This document shows positions 1,616 to 4,733 of a stretch of DNA of 5,747 nt, in pieces. The translations under genes were made by a program, and so were the position numbers. Below the pieces are notes generated by a model. It made no database searches and was not told the DNA's origin. It saw nothing but the letters and a program-made list of their open reading frames with translations. The DNA lies in the IMG/VR virus record IMGVR_UViG_2671180577_000020. One strand, written 5' to 3'. Origin of the DNA: a virus (Duplodnaviria > Heunggongvirae > Uroviricota > Caudoviricetes). Numbering within the stretch: position 1 is the first letter of the stretch; the number at the start of each line of letters is the position of its first letter.

Positions 1616-1816
1616 TCATTTCTCGTTATTTGTCATGCTGGCCGGACGCAGATGCGTTGCATCTGTTGCCAGCCTTCTCCTGCAGGCTTCAATAACCCAC
1701 GCTGAAAAGTTACCGGACCCTTTATGCTCAAGGGCGATGTTGATCTGTTCAATCATGTGATTGGGGAAACGGATATTGCGGGTTGTGGTTCTGCGGGTCC
1801 GGTTTTTCGATGACAT
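1616..1816 (-). CDS. small ribbon-helix-helix-like protein resembling the YlcI/YnfO (DUF3950) family of lambdoid prophages; antisense to the late operon
   Basis: Minus-strand ORF of 66 aa from the ATG at 1816-1814: MSSKNRTRRTTTRNIRFPNHMIEQINIALEHKGSGNFSAWVIEACRRRLATDATHLRPASMTNNEK. Strong SD (TAAAGGAAATAAAT-ATG). The track ORF extends 20 codons upstream, but the internal ATG has the RBS and matches the family N-terminus as I remember it. The family sits just upstream of the terminase region in E. coli cryptic prophages, as here. Family recall is from memory, not a search. Confidence 0.75.
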   Translation of the reverse strand: MSSKNRTRRTTTRNIRFPNHMIEQINIALEHKGSGNFSAWVIEACRRRLATDATHLRPASMTNNEK

Positions 1817-1857
1817 ATTTATTTCCTTTACTGATTGCCATATGACGGGGATTTTAC

Positions 1858-2223
1858 ATGGCTGAGCTTCGTACACTCCAGAGCAGAATCAAAACTCTGA
1901 ACACCCGACGGGTGAATATTCTGAAGGGGGAACAGCGTCGTGTCAGTGGCAGTGCACGTGTTTCCCTCAAGCGTCATATCTGGCTCAGGGATGCCGGGCA
2001 GTGCTGTCTCTGTGGTCGTGTGGTTGACCTCTGTGACAGTGAACTCGATCACCGCATTGCACTTCAGTTCGGTGGTGGTAATGAGGAGACGAATCTCTGG
2101 ACGCTCTGTACCGAATGCCATCGCCAGAAGTCAGTCAGTGAAACGGCGAGTGGTATGCCGGACCCGACGCTGCCGGAGGTGTCCGGAGGTCATGGCAGGG
2201 CAGACGATATCATCGGACTGTGA
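1858..2223 (+). CDS. HNH endonuclease (phage packaging-associated HNH, HK97 gp74-like)
   Basis: 121 aa with the canonical HNH/zinc-finger signature: CxxC (CCLCGR) ... DHRIALQFGGGNEETNLWTLCTECHRQK (D-H ... N ... C..C-H). Sits immediately upstream of the cos-like region and the terminase genes, the conserved position for HNH packaging cofactors. Confidence 0.9.
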   Translation: MAELRTLQSRIKTLNTRRVNILKGEQRRVSGSARVSLKRHIWLRDAGQCCLCGRVVDLCDSELDHRIALQFGGGNEETNLWTLCTECHRQKSVSETASGMPDPTLPEVSGGHGRADDIIGL

Positions 2224-2282
2224 TCCGCCCCGGGGGGGGATCATCCGGCGAAAAAAACGATCGCCCCGGACACCGCCCCCCG
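2224..2282. other. GC-rich dyad-symmetric element, candidate cosN (terminase nicking site)
   Basis: CCGCCCC-GGGGGGGG-ATC (G8 at 2232-2239) ... GATCGCCCCGG ... CACCGCCCCCCG (C6 at 2276-2281). Imperfect inverted repeat CCGGGGGGGGATC / GATCGCCCCGG centred near 2250, between the HNH stop and the TerS start, about 260 bp upstream of TerS. Positional analogy to lambda cosN; the ends are not proven. Confidence 0.3.
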
Positions 2283-2312
2283 TCTCATGCAGAGAAAAAA
2301 TTCCCGTTTCAG

Positions 2313-2440
2313 GCCAGTTAACATGTTAACTGGCTGTTCGGCCTTTTTTCTGTTTTTATCTTTATTATTCAGTTTGTTGTGCGAAAAAAATGTTAACTGG
2401 CTTTTTCAGCAAATGTTAACCAGGCAGCAGTTAACATTTG
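2313..2440. repeat. array of five TGTTAAC/GTTAACA motifs including a perfect 22-bp palindrome, separated by an AT-rich phased T-tract; candidate cosB-like terminase small-subunit binding sites
   Basis: Perfect palindrome GCCAGTTAACATGTTAACTGGC at 2313-2334. AAAAAAATGTTAACTGGC at 2384-2401. Inverted pair AAATGTTAAC (2411-2420) / GTTAACATTT (2430-2439) with a 9 bp spacer. AT-rich tract 2341-2390 (TTTTTTCTGTTTTTATCTTTATTATTC...) could be an IHF or intrinsic bend site. The layout resembles lambda cosB (R sites flanking I1). Confidence 0.45.
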
Positions 2441-2511
2441 CGGCATGAGACGCCGGGAAAAATGGGCTGAACCATACCCGGCTGAGTGCGTTATGGACCC
2501 GGGAGGAGGCT

Positions 2512-3075
2512 GTGCTGACAACGCAAAAACGAAAATTTGCGCTGGCGCTCATGTCCGGGAAAAACAAAACAGCGTCAGCCCTTGCCGCCGGTTATTCGGC
2601 GAAGACAGCCAGGGTTAAAGGCTCGCAGCTGGCAAAAGATCCGGAGGTGCTTGCGTTTATAGCCCGTAAACAGTGCGAGACGGTGGAGGTGGATGAGGTT
2701 CCTGTTTACCGGCAGAAAAAATCAGAGCCGGAGGATAAACCCCGTCGCCGTGAGGCGGCTGCAATACCACAGCCGGACGAAACAAATCCGGAGATGCCAC
2801 CGCCCGTGGTGATATCTCCTGGTATTGAGTATATGGAGGACGGTCTTCCCGATCCGGTGAAAGCGATGGGGCGTCTTCTGGTGGAGAACATTAATACCGA
2901 CCCCAGGCTGGCGCTGGATGCGGCTTATAAGCTGGCGCAGTTCACGCACCACAAAAAAGGGGATGCCGGTAAAAAATCGGCAAAAGGTGACGCGGCGAAA
3001 AAAGCGGCTAACCGTTTTGCGGTGCCACCACCACCCCGCCTGGTGGTGAATAATGATAATGAGGGCAACGGATGA
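2512..3075 (+). CDS. terminase small subunit (TerS; Terminase_2/P27-like HTH type)
   Basis: 187 aa from GTG 2512, preceded by a strong SD GGGAGGAGG (2501-2509). The N-terminus QKRKFALALMSGKNKTASALAAGYSAKTARVKGSQLAKDPEV is the typical TerS HTH region; lysine-rich basic C-terminus. Stop overlaps the TerL start (ATGA at 3072-3075). Confidence 0.85.
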   Translation: MLTTQKRKFALALMSGKNKTASALAAGYSAKTARVKGSQLAKDPEVLAFIARKQCETVEVDEVPVYRQKKSEPEDKPRRREAAAIPQPDETNPEMPPPVVISPGIEYMEDGLPDPVKAMGRLLVENINTDPRLALDAAYKLAQFTHHKKGDAGKKSAKGDAAKKAANRFAVPPPPRLVVNNDNEGNG

Positions 3076-4733
3076 TACCTGTGTGGAGCACGGCATGTCC
3101 GGACTGGGCAGAGCGCCTGAAAAAGGGGCTGTCGATTATTCCGGCTCCGATTTATCCGGACCAGGCTGCACATGCACTGGCGATTTTTAAACAACTGCGG
3201 ATTGTGGATGCACCGGGTAGCCCGACATTCGGGGAGTCCTGTGCACCGTGGGTGTTTGACCTGGTGGCGGCCCTGTTTGGCTCCTACGATGCGCAGACCG
3301 GTGTTCGCCATATCAAGGAAGTGTTTATCCTTATCCCCAAGAAAAACAGTAAGTCCACGCTGGCCGCGGGGATCATGATGACGGCGCTGTTACTGAACTG
3401 GCGGCAGGCGGCGGGCTACACCATTCTGGCCCCGACCGTGGAGGTGGCGGCTAACGCCTTCAACCCTGCCAGGGATATGGTACGACGGGACGATGATCTG
3501 GATGACCTCTGTCAGGTGCAGACACATATCCGGACCATCACCCATCGGGTGACGGACACCACCCTGAAGGTGGTGGCAGCCGATCCGAATACGGTGTCCG
3601 GTATCAAGTCCGTGGGGACACTGATTGATGAACTGTGGCTGTTTGGCAAGCAGTACAAAGCGGAAGACATGCTACGTGAAGCCATCGGCGGGCTGGCTTC
3701 ACGTCCGGAAGGGTTTGTGGTGTACACAACCACCCAGTCGAATGAACCGCCTGCCGGGGTGTTCAGGCAGAAACTGCAGTACGCCCGGGATGTCCGTGAC
3801 GGCAAAATTCATGATCCGCACTTTCTGCCGGTGATATTTGAGCATCCTCCTGAAATGGTGGAAAGCGGGGCTCACCTGCTGATGGAAAACCTCGCCATGG
3901 TTAACCCGAATCTCGGTTATTCGGTGGATGAGGCCTTTCTGTACCGGGAGTATCGTAAAGCCCGGGAAGCCGGGGAAGAGACTTTCCGCGGTTTCATGTC
4001 AAAACACGCCAATGTGGAAATCGGTCTTGCCCTGCGTTCTGACCGCTGGGCGGGCGCGGATTTCTGGGAGCAGCAGGGCAGGCGCGTCAGCCTGGACGAT
4101 ATCCTGCAGCGCGCTGATGTGGTGACGGTGGGGATTGACGGCGGGGGCCTGGATGATCTGCTGGGAATGTACGTGACTGGCCGTGACAGGGAAACCCGCG
4201 AATGGCTGGGCTGGGGCCATGCCTGGGTGCATGAAACCGCGGTGGTCAGACGGAAGAGTGAGGCATCCCGGTTTCAGGATTTTGTGGCCTGTGGAGACAT
4301 GACGATTGTCCGTCGGGTCGGGGATGACACGGCGGAAGTGGCGGAGTATGTGCGTCGTATTCATGAGGCTGAGTTACTGGATCATATCGGTATTGACCCG
4401 TCAGGTGTGGGGCAGATTCTGGATTCACTGGCGGAAGCCGGGATCCCCGATGAGAGTGTGGTGGGGATAAGCCAGGGCTGGAAGCTGGGCGGGGCCATCA
4501 AAACCACCGAGCGCAAACTGGCTGAGGGAGTGCTGGTGCATGGTGGTCAGCCACTGATGGCCTGGTGCGTTGGCAATGCCCGGGTGGAGCCTAAAGGTAA
4601 CGCCATTCTTATCACCAAACAGGCCAGCGGACGGGGAAAAATTGACCCTCTGATGGCGCTCTTCAATGCGGTGTCCCTGATGTCCCTGAATCCGGAACCG
4701 AAAAAGAAAGCGTATGAGGTTTTTTTCATATAA
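3072..4733 (+). CDS. terminase large subunit (TerL; HK97/Terminase_1 family ATPase-nuclease)
   Basis: 553 aa. Deviant Walker A typical of Terminase_1 large subunits (LIPKKNSKST; compare PRKNGKS). The length and the acidic C-terminal half are compatible with a nuclease domain (inference). ATG overlaps the TerS stop (translational coupling). Ends TAA at 4731-4733. Confidence 0.93.
   Translation: MIPVWSTACPDWAERLKKGLSIIPAPIYPDQAAHALAIFKQLRIVDAPGSPTFGESCAPWVFDLVAALFGSYDAQTGVRHIKEVFILIPKKNSKSTLAAGIMMTALLLNWRQAAGYTILAPTVEVAANAFNPARDMVRRDDDLDDLCQVQTHIRTITHRVTDTTLKVVAADPNTVSGIKSVGTLIDELWLFGKQYKAEDMLREAIGGLASRPEGFVVYTTTQSNEPPAGVFRQKLQYARDVRDGKIHDPHFLPVIFEHPPEMVESGAHLLMENLAMVNPNLGYSVDEAFLYREYRKAREAGEETFRGFMSKHANVEIGLALRSDRWAGADFWEQQGRRVSLDDILQRADVVTVGIDGGGLDDLLGMYVTGRDRETREWLGWGHAWVHETAVVRRKSEASRFQDFVACGDMTIVRRVGDDTAEVAEYVRRIHEAELLDHIGIDPSGVGQILDSLAEAGIPDESVVGISQGWKLGGAIKTTERKLAEGVLVHGGQPLMAWCVGNARVEPKGNAILITKQASGRGKIDPLMALFNAVSLMSLNPEPKKKAYEVFFI

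Follow-up and report, generated by a model that had tools for sequence, protein, structure and literature searches.

In phage lambda, the recognition element cosB (R3-I1-R2-R1, with gpNu1 and integration host factor, IHF, as its proteins) lies to the right of the cut site, cosN, and before the small terminase gene, terS, at the genome end that is packaged first. It holds several copies of a short motif, the 16-bp R site, in both orientations with AT-rich DNA between them, and the cut leaves 12-nt 5' overhangs. In the headful, pac-type phages SPP1 and SF6, whose small terminase (TerS; G1P) is a Terminase_2 protein with an N-terminal helix-turn-helix DNA-binding domain, several short repeats flank or overlap terS and bendable AT-rich DNA separates them. 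HK97 has the gene order HNH endonuclease, cos, terS, terL (the large terminase, PF03354/PF20441), a 10-nt 3' overhang, an A-tract near the cut and a TerS recognition site 3' of it; its TerS uses one 15-bp site, at +15 to +29, which is contacted by an arm at the N terminus and by a C-terminal helix (Arg7, Arg128), the DNA being led into the ring channel (PMC11331095). Here we describe an array of five TGTTAAC repeats (positions 2,313 to 2,440) in a 5,747-nt stretch of viral DNA, IMG/VR record IMGVR_UViG_2671180577_000020, referred to below in its full length as the window, which is the late region of a BP-4795/2851-type Shiga toxin (Stx) lambdoid prophage of Escherichia coli. The array is probably the TerS-recognition part, that is, a putative cosB equivalent, of the cos site in the HNH-dependent, HK97-style packaging module of these prophages. 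In the literature we found no paper on cosB or TerS sites for phages of the BP-4795/2851 type.

All five copies of TGTTAAC in the window, where 0.48 would be expected, fall within 2317-2436, three on the plus strand (2324-2330, 2391-2397 and 2414-2420) and two on the minus strand (2317-2323 and 2430-2436). Five or more copies were reached in 0 of 200 dinucleotide shuffles of the whole window, and shuffles of the AT-richer intergenic region 2224-2511 held a mean of 0.035 copies, none of 200,000 getting to five. A longer consensus, ATGTTAACTGG, matches all five copies with at most two mismatches and nothing else in the window. A sequence-only reading of this DNA had reported the five motifs, a number that it called far beyond chance, with a perfect palindrome, a recurring copy and an inverted pair, and each of these was recovered in its place. 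The parts of the cos region are as follows, plus-signed positions in the window being counted from the cut.

2221-2243: G/C-rich palindrome with a run of eight Gs, TGATCCGCCCCGGGGGGGGATCA; overlaps the HNH stop codon, about 40-60 bp left of the cut.
2274-2283: cosN, CGCCCCCCGT, placed by alignment with phage Lys8385Vzw; becomes the 10-nt 3' cohesive end, with the packaged left end running from 2284.
2284-2312: post-cut block with an A-tract, CTCATGCAGAGAAAAAATTCCCGTTTCAGG; nearly invariant across genera and in satellites.
2313-2334: sites 1 and 2, perfect 22-bp palindrome GCCAGTTAACATGTTAACTGGC; two head-to-head half-sites, +30 to +51 from the cut.
2335-2387: T-rich spacer; conserved in close relatives and also in satellite L067, without an IHF consensus.
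2388-2401, plus strand: site 3, AAATGTTAACTGGC; a direct copy of site 2, 67 bp after it.
2409-2420 and 2430-2441: sites 4 and 5, GCAAATGTTAAC and GTTAACATTTGC; a perfect 12-bp inverted repeat with a 9-nt spacer.
2443-2457: inverted partial copy GCATGAGACGCCGGG of the right half of cosN and its flank (2276-2290, CCCCCCGTCTCATGC); 15 nt, 87% complementary.

Within the array, TGTTAACTGGC of the palindrome is found again at 2391-2401, and sites 4 and 5 have the geometry of two hexamers set 9 nt apart. The outermost part of the palindrome is peculiar to the window variant: 48 of the 67 unique relatives have G at 2314 in place of C, and the perfect palindrome core common to the relatives is therefore the 18 bp CAGTTAACATGTTAACTG. 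The spacer after site 2 is rich in T (38 of the 76 nt of 2335-2410), as the sequence-only reading had said, and could serve as a flexible or bent linker. The phasing that it had also claimed for this tract proved weak: the T-runs are unevenly spaced (centres at 2346.5, 2355, 2362 and 2374), and a nominal enrichment of TT periodicity appears at 10.0 bp (a level attained by 32 of 2000 shuffles) and not at 10.5 or 11 bp. Two other features touch the array. The partial copy at 2443-2457 forms, with 2276-2290, an inverted repeat of cut-site sequence that brackets it, and a 53-aa open reading frame (ORF; 2287-2448, MQRKNSRF...) begins just past cosN and spans it, but this ORF is unannotated in the related records inspected and is probably spurious.

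The position of the array relative to the cut comes from relatives. Phage Lys8385Vzw is about 96% identical to the window in the cos region, as is its TerS (96%), and PhageTerm analysis of its reads gave 3' cohesive ends with the sequence CGCCCCCCCT, located at the end of the record (PMC7946995). That record starts 229 nt 5' of terS; its end (...GACACCGCCCCCCCT) and start (CTCACGCAGAGAAAAAATTCCCG) align with window 2269-2306, and the junction as it stands in the record, from ...GGACACCGCCCCCCCT to CTCACGCAGAGAAAAAATTCCCGTTTCAGGGCAGTTAACATGTTAACTGG, corresponds to the step from 2283 to 2284 in the window. The record of Burkholderia phage Bcep176 has one end that begins exactly at the homologous 10 nt (CGCACGTTCC / CTCACGCGCAG..., the slash marking the end). 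By these two proxies, the Lys8385Vzw read analysis and the Bcep176 record end, the cut leaves a 10-nt 3' overhang, and with the mapped end at 2274-2283 the array occupies +30 to +157 of the left end, the part packaged first. It lies between cosN and terS, 30 bp past the former; the last half-site ends at +153 and terS starts at +229. The start of the vB_CB2a record, 21 nt before terS, was also considered as a genome end, but it is arbitrary and uninformative on the ends. Among close relatives cosN is polymorphic at 2277 (C/G) and at 2282 (G/C), the two bases at either position being split roughly one-third to two-thirds, and for this reason the overhangs of co-resident prophages may be non-identical.

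Two further elements accompany the cut. A run of at least seven Gs occurs at the same distance from it in relatives from Enterobacterales, Burkholderia, Pseudomonas and Acinetobacter and in satellites, and the G/C palindrome at 2221-2243 that contains this run in the window probably belongs to the cos site on its last-packaged side. The block at 2284-2312 is common to phages and satellites with any type of TerS, which suggests that it is probably read by TerL or the HNH protein, or serves DNA shape; its A-tract lies at +9 to +19, and as satellites with a different TerS keep the block, it probably does not set TerS specificity here. In a Janthinobacterium prophage (L040, -192 to -110 of the terS start), several GCAACAT/ATGTTGC repeats were found 5' of the G-run, across cos from the TerS sites.

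Conservation among close relatives was measured on 67 unique intergenic sequences, obtained from 80 IMG/VR loci together with phage loci. Just one of the 35 core columns is variable, in one sequence, against 60 of the 253 other intergenic columns (Fisher p = 0.0016) and 20 of the 93 non-core columns within the array (p = 0.0067), values that are rough and not independent probabilities because the sequences compared are related. The core of site 3 is invariant in all 67 variants, and TerS variants of the P0014 type, 80% identical to that of the window, retain the same five-site array. In a P0030-type locus (L154), where TerS is 69% identical, the inverted pair reads TGTTTAC-AGGGCAGCA-GTAAACA, both arms having been altered symmetrically. 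The comparison indicates that the cores are under selection, being conserved far better than the DNA between them.

The protein that would read these sites is encoded just downstream. The window TerS matches one Pfam family, PF03592 (Terminase_2; 34.3 bits against a cut-off of 26.1, residues 2-57), and its layout is an N-terminal helix-turn-helix domain, a disordered linker and a C-terminal helical domain. The TerS family profile matches the solved TerS DNA-binding domains 4zc3, 2cmp and 3zqp with E-values of 2e-4 to 1e-3; a search of PDB sequences with this TerS alone gave marginal matches (E 0.3-0.7). In an AlphaFold2 model, residues 1-55 have predicted local distance difference test (pLDDT) scores above 90, with helices at 4-14, 19-25, 33-41 and 44-54, and the linker (about 59-100) is of low confidence, residues 59-84, 87-89 and 93-95 falling below 50. 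The dimeric form that the sequence-only reading gave to the binding protein did not find support; solved TerS proteins of the Terminase_2 family are ring oligomers. The 55 N-terminal residues are the part best conserved in phage relatives, at 69-76% identity, compared with 35-47% in the C-terminal domain.

Alignment with TerS retrieved 57 loci from data with one genome per species, and in these the motif appears to follow the helix-turn-helix. The cos block, a G-run followed by GGACACCGC(G)CCCCCTCTCACGCACAGAAAAAATTCCCCTCTGGAGGGTGTAAAC / ATGTTAACAGCG with the cut at the slash, is whole in more than ten Enterobacterales genera (Kluyvera, Atlantibacter, Erwinia, Serratia, Enterobacter, Kosakonia, Rouxiella, Phytobacter, Pantoea, Citrobacter and Buttiauxella) and also in Salmonella phage FSL SP-016. 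In these Enterobacterales relatives terS starts about 50 nt past the cut, and its ATG is the centre of a palindrome, GT[A/T]AAC-AT-GTTAAC, to which the window palindrome at 2313-2334 is homologous; this arrangement stands at the cosN offset of the window palindrome in 20 loci from more than ten genera. The same relatives have a second pair inside terS (+205 to +227), TGTTAAT-9 nt-GTAAACA, coding for NVNTPAVN, whose hexamer-9 nt-hexamer geometry is that of window sites 4 and 5. The sequence of this intragenic pair is absent from the linker of the window TerS, and the 9-nt spacers, read by eye, are identical at 4 of 9 positions (CAGGCAGCA in the window, ACCCCAGCG in the relatives); we would therefore claim the same geometry for the two pairs, and not common descent. 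In the window lineage the ancestral ribosome-binding site has been lost, about 190 bp and three further sites have been gained, and terS restarts as GTG CTG ACA at 2512. By this comparison the array is an expansion in this lineage of a plan that in most relatives consists of one start-codon palindrome and a pair in the terS linker.

Similar clusters occur farther afield. A Proteus mirabilis prophage (L022, 2700-2860) carries five GTTAAC and many GTTAAT or ATTAAC in or near the terS linker, where 0.13 GTTAAC would be expected and 0 of 2000 shuffles reach five, and (K/D/E)VN is the repeat unit of the linker peptide. At 55-64% GC, prophages of Pseudomonas, Burkholderia and Janthinobacterium have GTTAAtggcGTTAAC at the terS start, and in some of these GC-rich relatives GTTAA underlies KVK/KVN repeats in the linker; in Schauerella three copies stand in the interval from cosN to terS. 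Pooled over 23 loci, which are not independent of each other, GTTAA occurs at 7.5 per kb in -260 to +340 of the terS start against 1.4 per kb elsewhere, an enrichment that is partly forced by coding, since the starting Met-Leu-Thr is itself ATGTTAAC and LVKDPDVK in the helix-turn-helix region contributes. Clusters of GTTAA(C) thus seem to go with this TerS helix-turn-helix across phyla-level distances. Linker repeats of VN, VK or VT whose codons spell GTTAAC, GTTAAG or GTTACA were seen in L022 and in the linkers of the satellite proteins P0063 and P0053 described below, and also in L030, L037 and L055 at +183 to +226; in such linkers it appears that a signal at the DNA level dictates the peptide sequence.

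The comparison that bears most directly on the reader of the motif comes from satellites. Two E. coli TerS homologues, P0063 and P0053, are 58-69% identical to the window TerS in the C-terminal domain (35-47% in other phages), whereas their N-terminal helix-turn-helix is 49-55% identical to it, as opposed to 69-76% in other phages; the changes S38W, A41S/V and K42N/R lie in or just past the predicted third helix, residues 33-41. Both proteins are encoded in satellite islands that resemble phage-inducible chromosomal islands (PICIs), P0063 in L063-L066 (about 2376-2733) and P0053 in L067 (about 1736-2240) and L068, with L069 as a further such island. L067 and L068 carry AlpA, L063-L066 carry a D5_N/DUF5906 or AAA_25 primase and a 307-aa protein with weak similarity to major head proteins, all the islands adjoin an Ag43-type autotransporter gene, and neither an HNH gene nor terL was found within 2.5 kb of a satellite terS. 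The satellites keep the window-type cosN block, for example GGACACCGCCCCCCGTCTCAT in L063, but have AAAAGTTACAC at the offset where the window has CAGTTAAC. Further GTTACA copies, direct and inverted, follow in the cosN-terS interval and recur in the linker part of terS, which there encodes a KVT-repeat peptide, and in L063 seven of the nine GTTACA/TGTAAC copies in 5.5 kb fall within 300 bp past cosN; no such GTTACA cluster was found in the window. The sequence-only reading had proposed asking whether a different TerS helix-turn-helix goes with a different repeat, and these islands answer in the affirmative, with the same cosN and the same offset. The same cut site combined with a different helix-turn-helix and a different repeat supports TerS as the reader of the motif. 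An Acinetobacter locus (L042, -57 to +48 of the terS start) keeps GGACACCGCCCCCGTTCTCAT followed by GGTAAA repeats, and the third helix of its TerS reads SAGMMGSQLM; it may be a third specificity class and a third, weak case of co-variation.

Together, the position next to cosN, the conservation of the cores and the co-variation of helix-turn-helix and repeat agree, on comparative grounds, with the sequence-only proposal of lambda-cosB-like TerS sites. Several points weigh against it. The cos end was mapped by software, from reads of a 96%-identical relative rather than of the window element, and the relatedness of the loci and the coding contribution to GTTAA noted above soften the statistics. 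The satellite lineages share both W38 and GTTACA, so they represent essentially one helix-turn-helix switch, and their repeats could in principle have another function, for example as replication iterons. A hairpin would account for the symmetric change in L154 no less well than a symmetric protein site, and hairpins, in RNA and in DNA, are also predicted from the palindromes. In that explanation the palindromes would act as structures, either in the late mRNA, as a terminator or attenuator after the HNH gene or as translational control before terS, or as DNA cruciforms at cos. Folding of 2284-2470 gives two strong hairpins (-54.2 kcal/mol, z = -2.24), the first lying in terminator-like fashion between an A-run (2293-2300) and a U-run (2344-2349), and the arms of the second pair in L154 were altered together with their pairing kept. 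Nevertheless, 9 nt separate the perfect stem from the U-run (the fold is a hairpin with internal loops, then CC, then U6), a consensus terminator scan found nothing at the array, and lambdoid late transcription is Q-antiterminated and would read through such a terminator. Site 3, a lone direct copy, has no local pairing partner; the equivalents in the satellites are direct and not inverted repeats, and the GC-rich relatives and Schauerella likewise carry direct repeats, 9-13 nt apart. In most relatives, moreover, the palindrome has no T-run, because it is the start of terS, and its stem of 6 AT-rich pairs with a 2-nt loop is unstable. A structural role for the palindromes is, on this evidence, unlikely.

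Short palindromes are also typical of operators, and the repeats might bind some other protein: a host factor, the HNH endonuclease or the product of the divergently oriented DUF3950 (YlcI-family) gene, at a distance of about 440 bp. There is one weak promoter-like match inside the array, on the minus strand, but sigma-70 promoter-like matches number 2 compared with 1.2 expected in shuffles, which is uninformative. The sequence-only reading had entertained the DUF3950 protein, as an RHH-like (ribbon-helix-helix) protein, and IHF as binders, and neither idea held. Among about 60 related loci with the GTTAA(C) cluster retained, tblastn detected a DUF3950 homologue in none, so the protein was rejected as a required binder; the IHF consensus WATCAANNNNTTR has no match with one mismatch or fewer in 2224-2511, and a consensus IHF site in the T-tract was likewise rejected, the weak periodicity leaving an intrinsic bend possible. 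An HNH, TerL or host-factor reader is disfavored by the satellites, which share the host, and presumably the HNH protein and TerL of the helper, and the same cosN, yet have a different repeat together with a different TerS helix-turn-helix. We regard an operator for another protein as very improbable. It is just as hard to believe that the extra copies are neutral debris of the start-codon palindrome (ATGTTAAC), left when a duplication or insertion displaced the terS start. The homology of the palindrome to the terS start region of relatives and the roughly 190 extra bp in the window lineage would fit such an origin, as would the resemblance, judged by eye, of site 4 and its flank (ATGTTAACCAGGCAGCAG) to the ancestral 5' end of terS (ATGTTAACAGCGCAGAAG) at 15 of 18 positions. 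Debris would not be expected, however, to have almost invariant cores in otherwise variable DNA, or to be retained as a five-site array down to 80% TerS identity and in 1242 of 5426 complete E. coli genomes; independent expansions in the Proteus linker, the Schauerella intergenic region and the Pseudomonas linker, and a parallel array with its own motif in the satellites, also speak against it.

We return to the array as the putative TerS-recognition part of cos, for which the following course of events can be proposed. The helix-turn-helix domains of oligomeric TerS would bind the GTTAAC-type half-sites on concatemeric DNA, namely those of the palindrome (+30 to +51), of site 3 (about +105 to +118) and of the inverted pair (+126 to +158), with the T-rich spacer between. 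Bound TerS would then place the HNH endonuclease and TerL on cosN (2274-2283); the DNA would be nicked there at staggered positions, leaving the 10-nt 3' overhang, and packaging would proceed rightwards through the array into terS and terL. Sequence or literature shows the repeats, where they stand relative to the mapped cos end, that they are selectively conserved and that they co-vary with the type of helix-turn-helix; the binding of TerS, its stoichiometry, any wrapping or bending of the DNA and what each site contributes are what we infer.

Set beside the described systems, the array resembles lambda cosB in lying right of cosN and before terS at the first-packaged end, in having several copies of a short motif in both orientations with AT-rich DNA between them, and in a reader that is presumably the helix-turn-helix of the small terminase encoded just downstream. 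Lambda-type specificity can be exchanged independently of cosN, as work on lambda/21 and PICIs has shown (PMC6092414), and a swap of this kind is visible here in the satellites. Unlike in lambda, the window TerS belongs to Terminase_2 (SPP1/SF6-like) and not to the Nu1 family, the ends are 10-nt 3' ends (by proxy from Lys8385Vzw), an HNH endonuclease gene is part of the module, the IHF consensus was not found between the sites (2224-2511), the motif is a palindromic core of 6-7 bp, GTTAAC, in place of the 16-bp R site, and the sites of the window's relatives overlap the terS start codon and the coding sequence of the terS linker. The array would thus work like lambda cosB, yet it stands outside that family in its TerS, ends, HNH gene and lack of an IHF consensus. 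With HK97 the window shares the order HNH-cos-terS-terL, the TerL families, the 10-nt 3' overhang (again by proxy), a TerS recognition site, putative in the window, 3' of the cut and the A-tract near it; in place of a single site, however, it has a canonical N-terminal helix-turn-helix in TerS and five candidate half-sites, +34 to +153, spread over 125 bp. The Terminase_2 protein and its N-terminal helix-turn-helix are shared with SPP1 and SF6, which package by headful from pac, whereas the window type is a cos system with defined 3' cohesive ends (Lys8385Vzw) and an HNH gene. Islands L063-L069, which join a TerS helix-turn-helix and a repeat of their own to a helper-type cosN, recall the satellite TerS that redirects helper packaging, as in Staphylococcus aureus pathogenicity islands (SaPI TerS) and the TerS-encoding PICIs of E. 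coli; this likeness concerns related loci, the window being the phage side of the pair. TerS-encoding E. coli PICIs have been mentioned without a helper or packaging site, and those tested in 2018 were not transferred (PMC6092414). The cos data for SfI and SfV were set aside as a comparison, as these phages have a different packaging module.

It is possible, though we advance this with less confidence than the role of the array itself, that GTTAAC versus GTTACA constitutes a packaging-specificity code between common Stx/lambdoid prophages of E. coli and TerS-encoding satellites, the linker peptide being a by-product of the DNA signal. BP-4795-type phages may be the helpers of these islands. 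By keeping the helper's cut site and a TerS C-terminal domain compatible with the helper, the satellites would, through a re-tuned helix-turn-helix and repeats to match, have the helper's TerL and HNH protein package satellite DNA instead. The recognition sites would often be written into the coding sequence of the disordered TerS linker, and the VN/VK/VT peptide would then not be selected at the protein level.

The genes around the array, assigned by Pfam, run in the order Rz, TonB_C lipoprotein, DUF3950, HNH, intergenic region, terS and terL.

20-598: Rz.
1143-1484: lipoprotein with a TonB C-terminal domain (PF03544); moron-like, between the lysis genes and cos.
1616-1876, minus strand: DUF3950 (YlcI/YnfO family; PF13132, 71.3 bits), the RHH-like protein of the sequence-only reading.
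1858-2223, plus strand: HNH endonuclease (PF01844, 28.3 bits against a cut-off of 21.4), the accessory nuclease of HK97-type cos modules.
2512-3075, plus strand: terS, small terminase (Terminase_2, PF03592).
3072-4733, plus strand: terL, large terminase with ATPase and nuclease domains (PF03354, PF20441).

A family search with the ORF at 595-819, a neighbour of the lipoprotein gene, gave no match. An HNH endonuclease is also annotated in BP-4795, 2851 and JLK-2012, and a homologue stands directly 5' of terS in 33 related loci; terL homologues, 53-87% identical, come after terS in related loci. The segment 1600-3100 matches 94 phage records at 91-98% identity with the same gene order annotated, among them BP-4795, 2851, JLK-2012, YYZ-2008, 1717 and many Stx1a, Stx2a and Stx2c phages, and window 2260-2515 is found in the 1242 E. 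coli genomes counted above in up to 7 copies per genome. In PPompW prophages (LC567822 and others; L153, 1046-2504), ISEc20, an insertion sequence of the IS110 family, adjoins the G-run (window ~2235); the order is Q and tRNA genes, the insertion sequence directly after them, then cosN and terS, without lysis genes and HNH, so these prophages are probably packaging-defective.

What we describe is most likely a cosB-like arrangement in a different packaging system, one for which we found no earlier description in the literature. If this is true, the locus would be a worked example of an SPP1/SF6-family helix-turn-helix TerS in a cos system with HNH and 3' overhangs, which sits between two well-studied paradigms, lambda cosB and the single HK97 site, and the natural swap from GTTAAC to GTTACA, accompanied by S38W and other changes, makes its TerS-DNA recognition directly testable. 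This cos region serves phages that carry stx1, stx2a and stx2c. Knowledge of the recognition element would permit cos plasmids or cosmid-like reporters for the packaging of Stx phages, the prediction of cross-packaging among co-resident prophages and satellites in O157-type strains, which hold many lambdoid prophages, and the design of interference with the spread of toxin phages.

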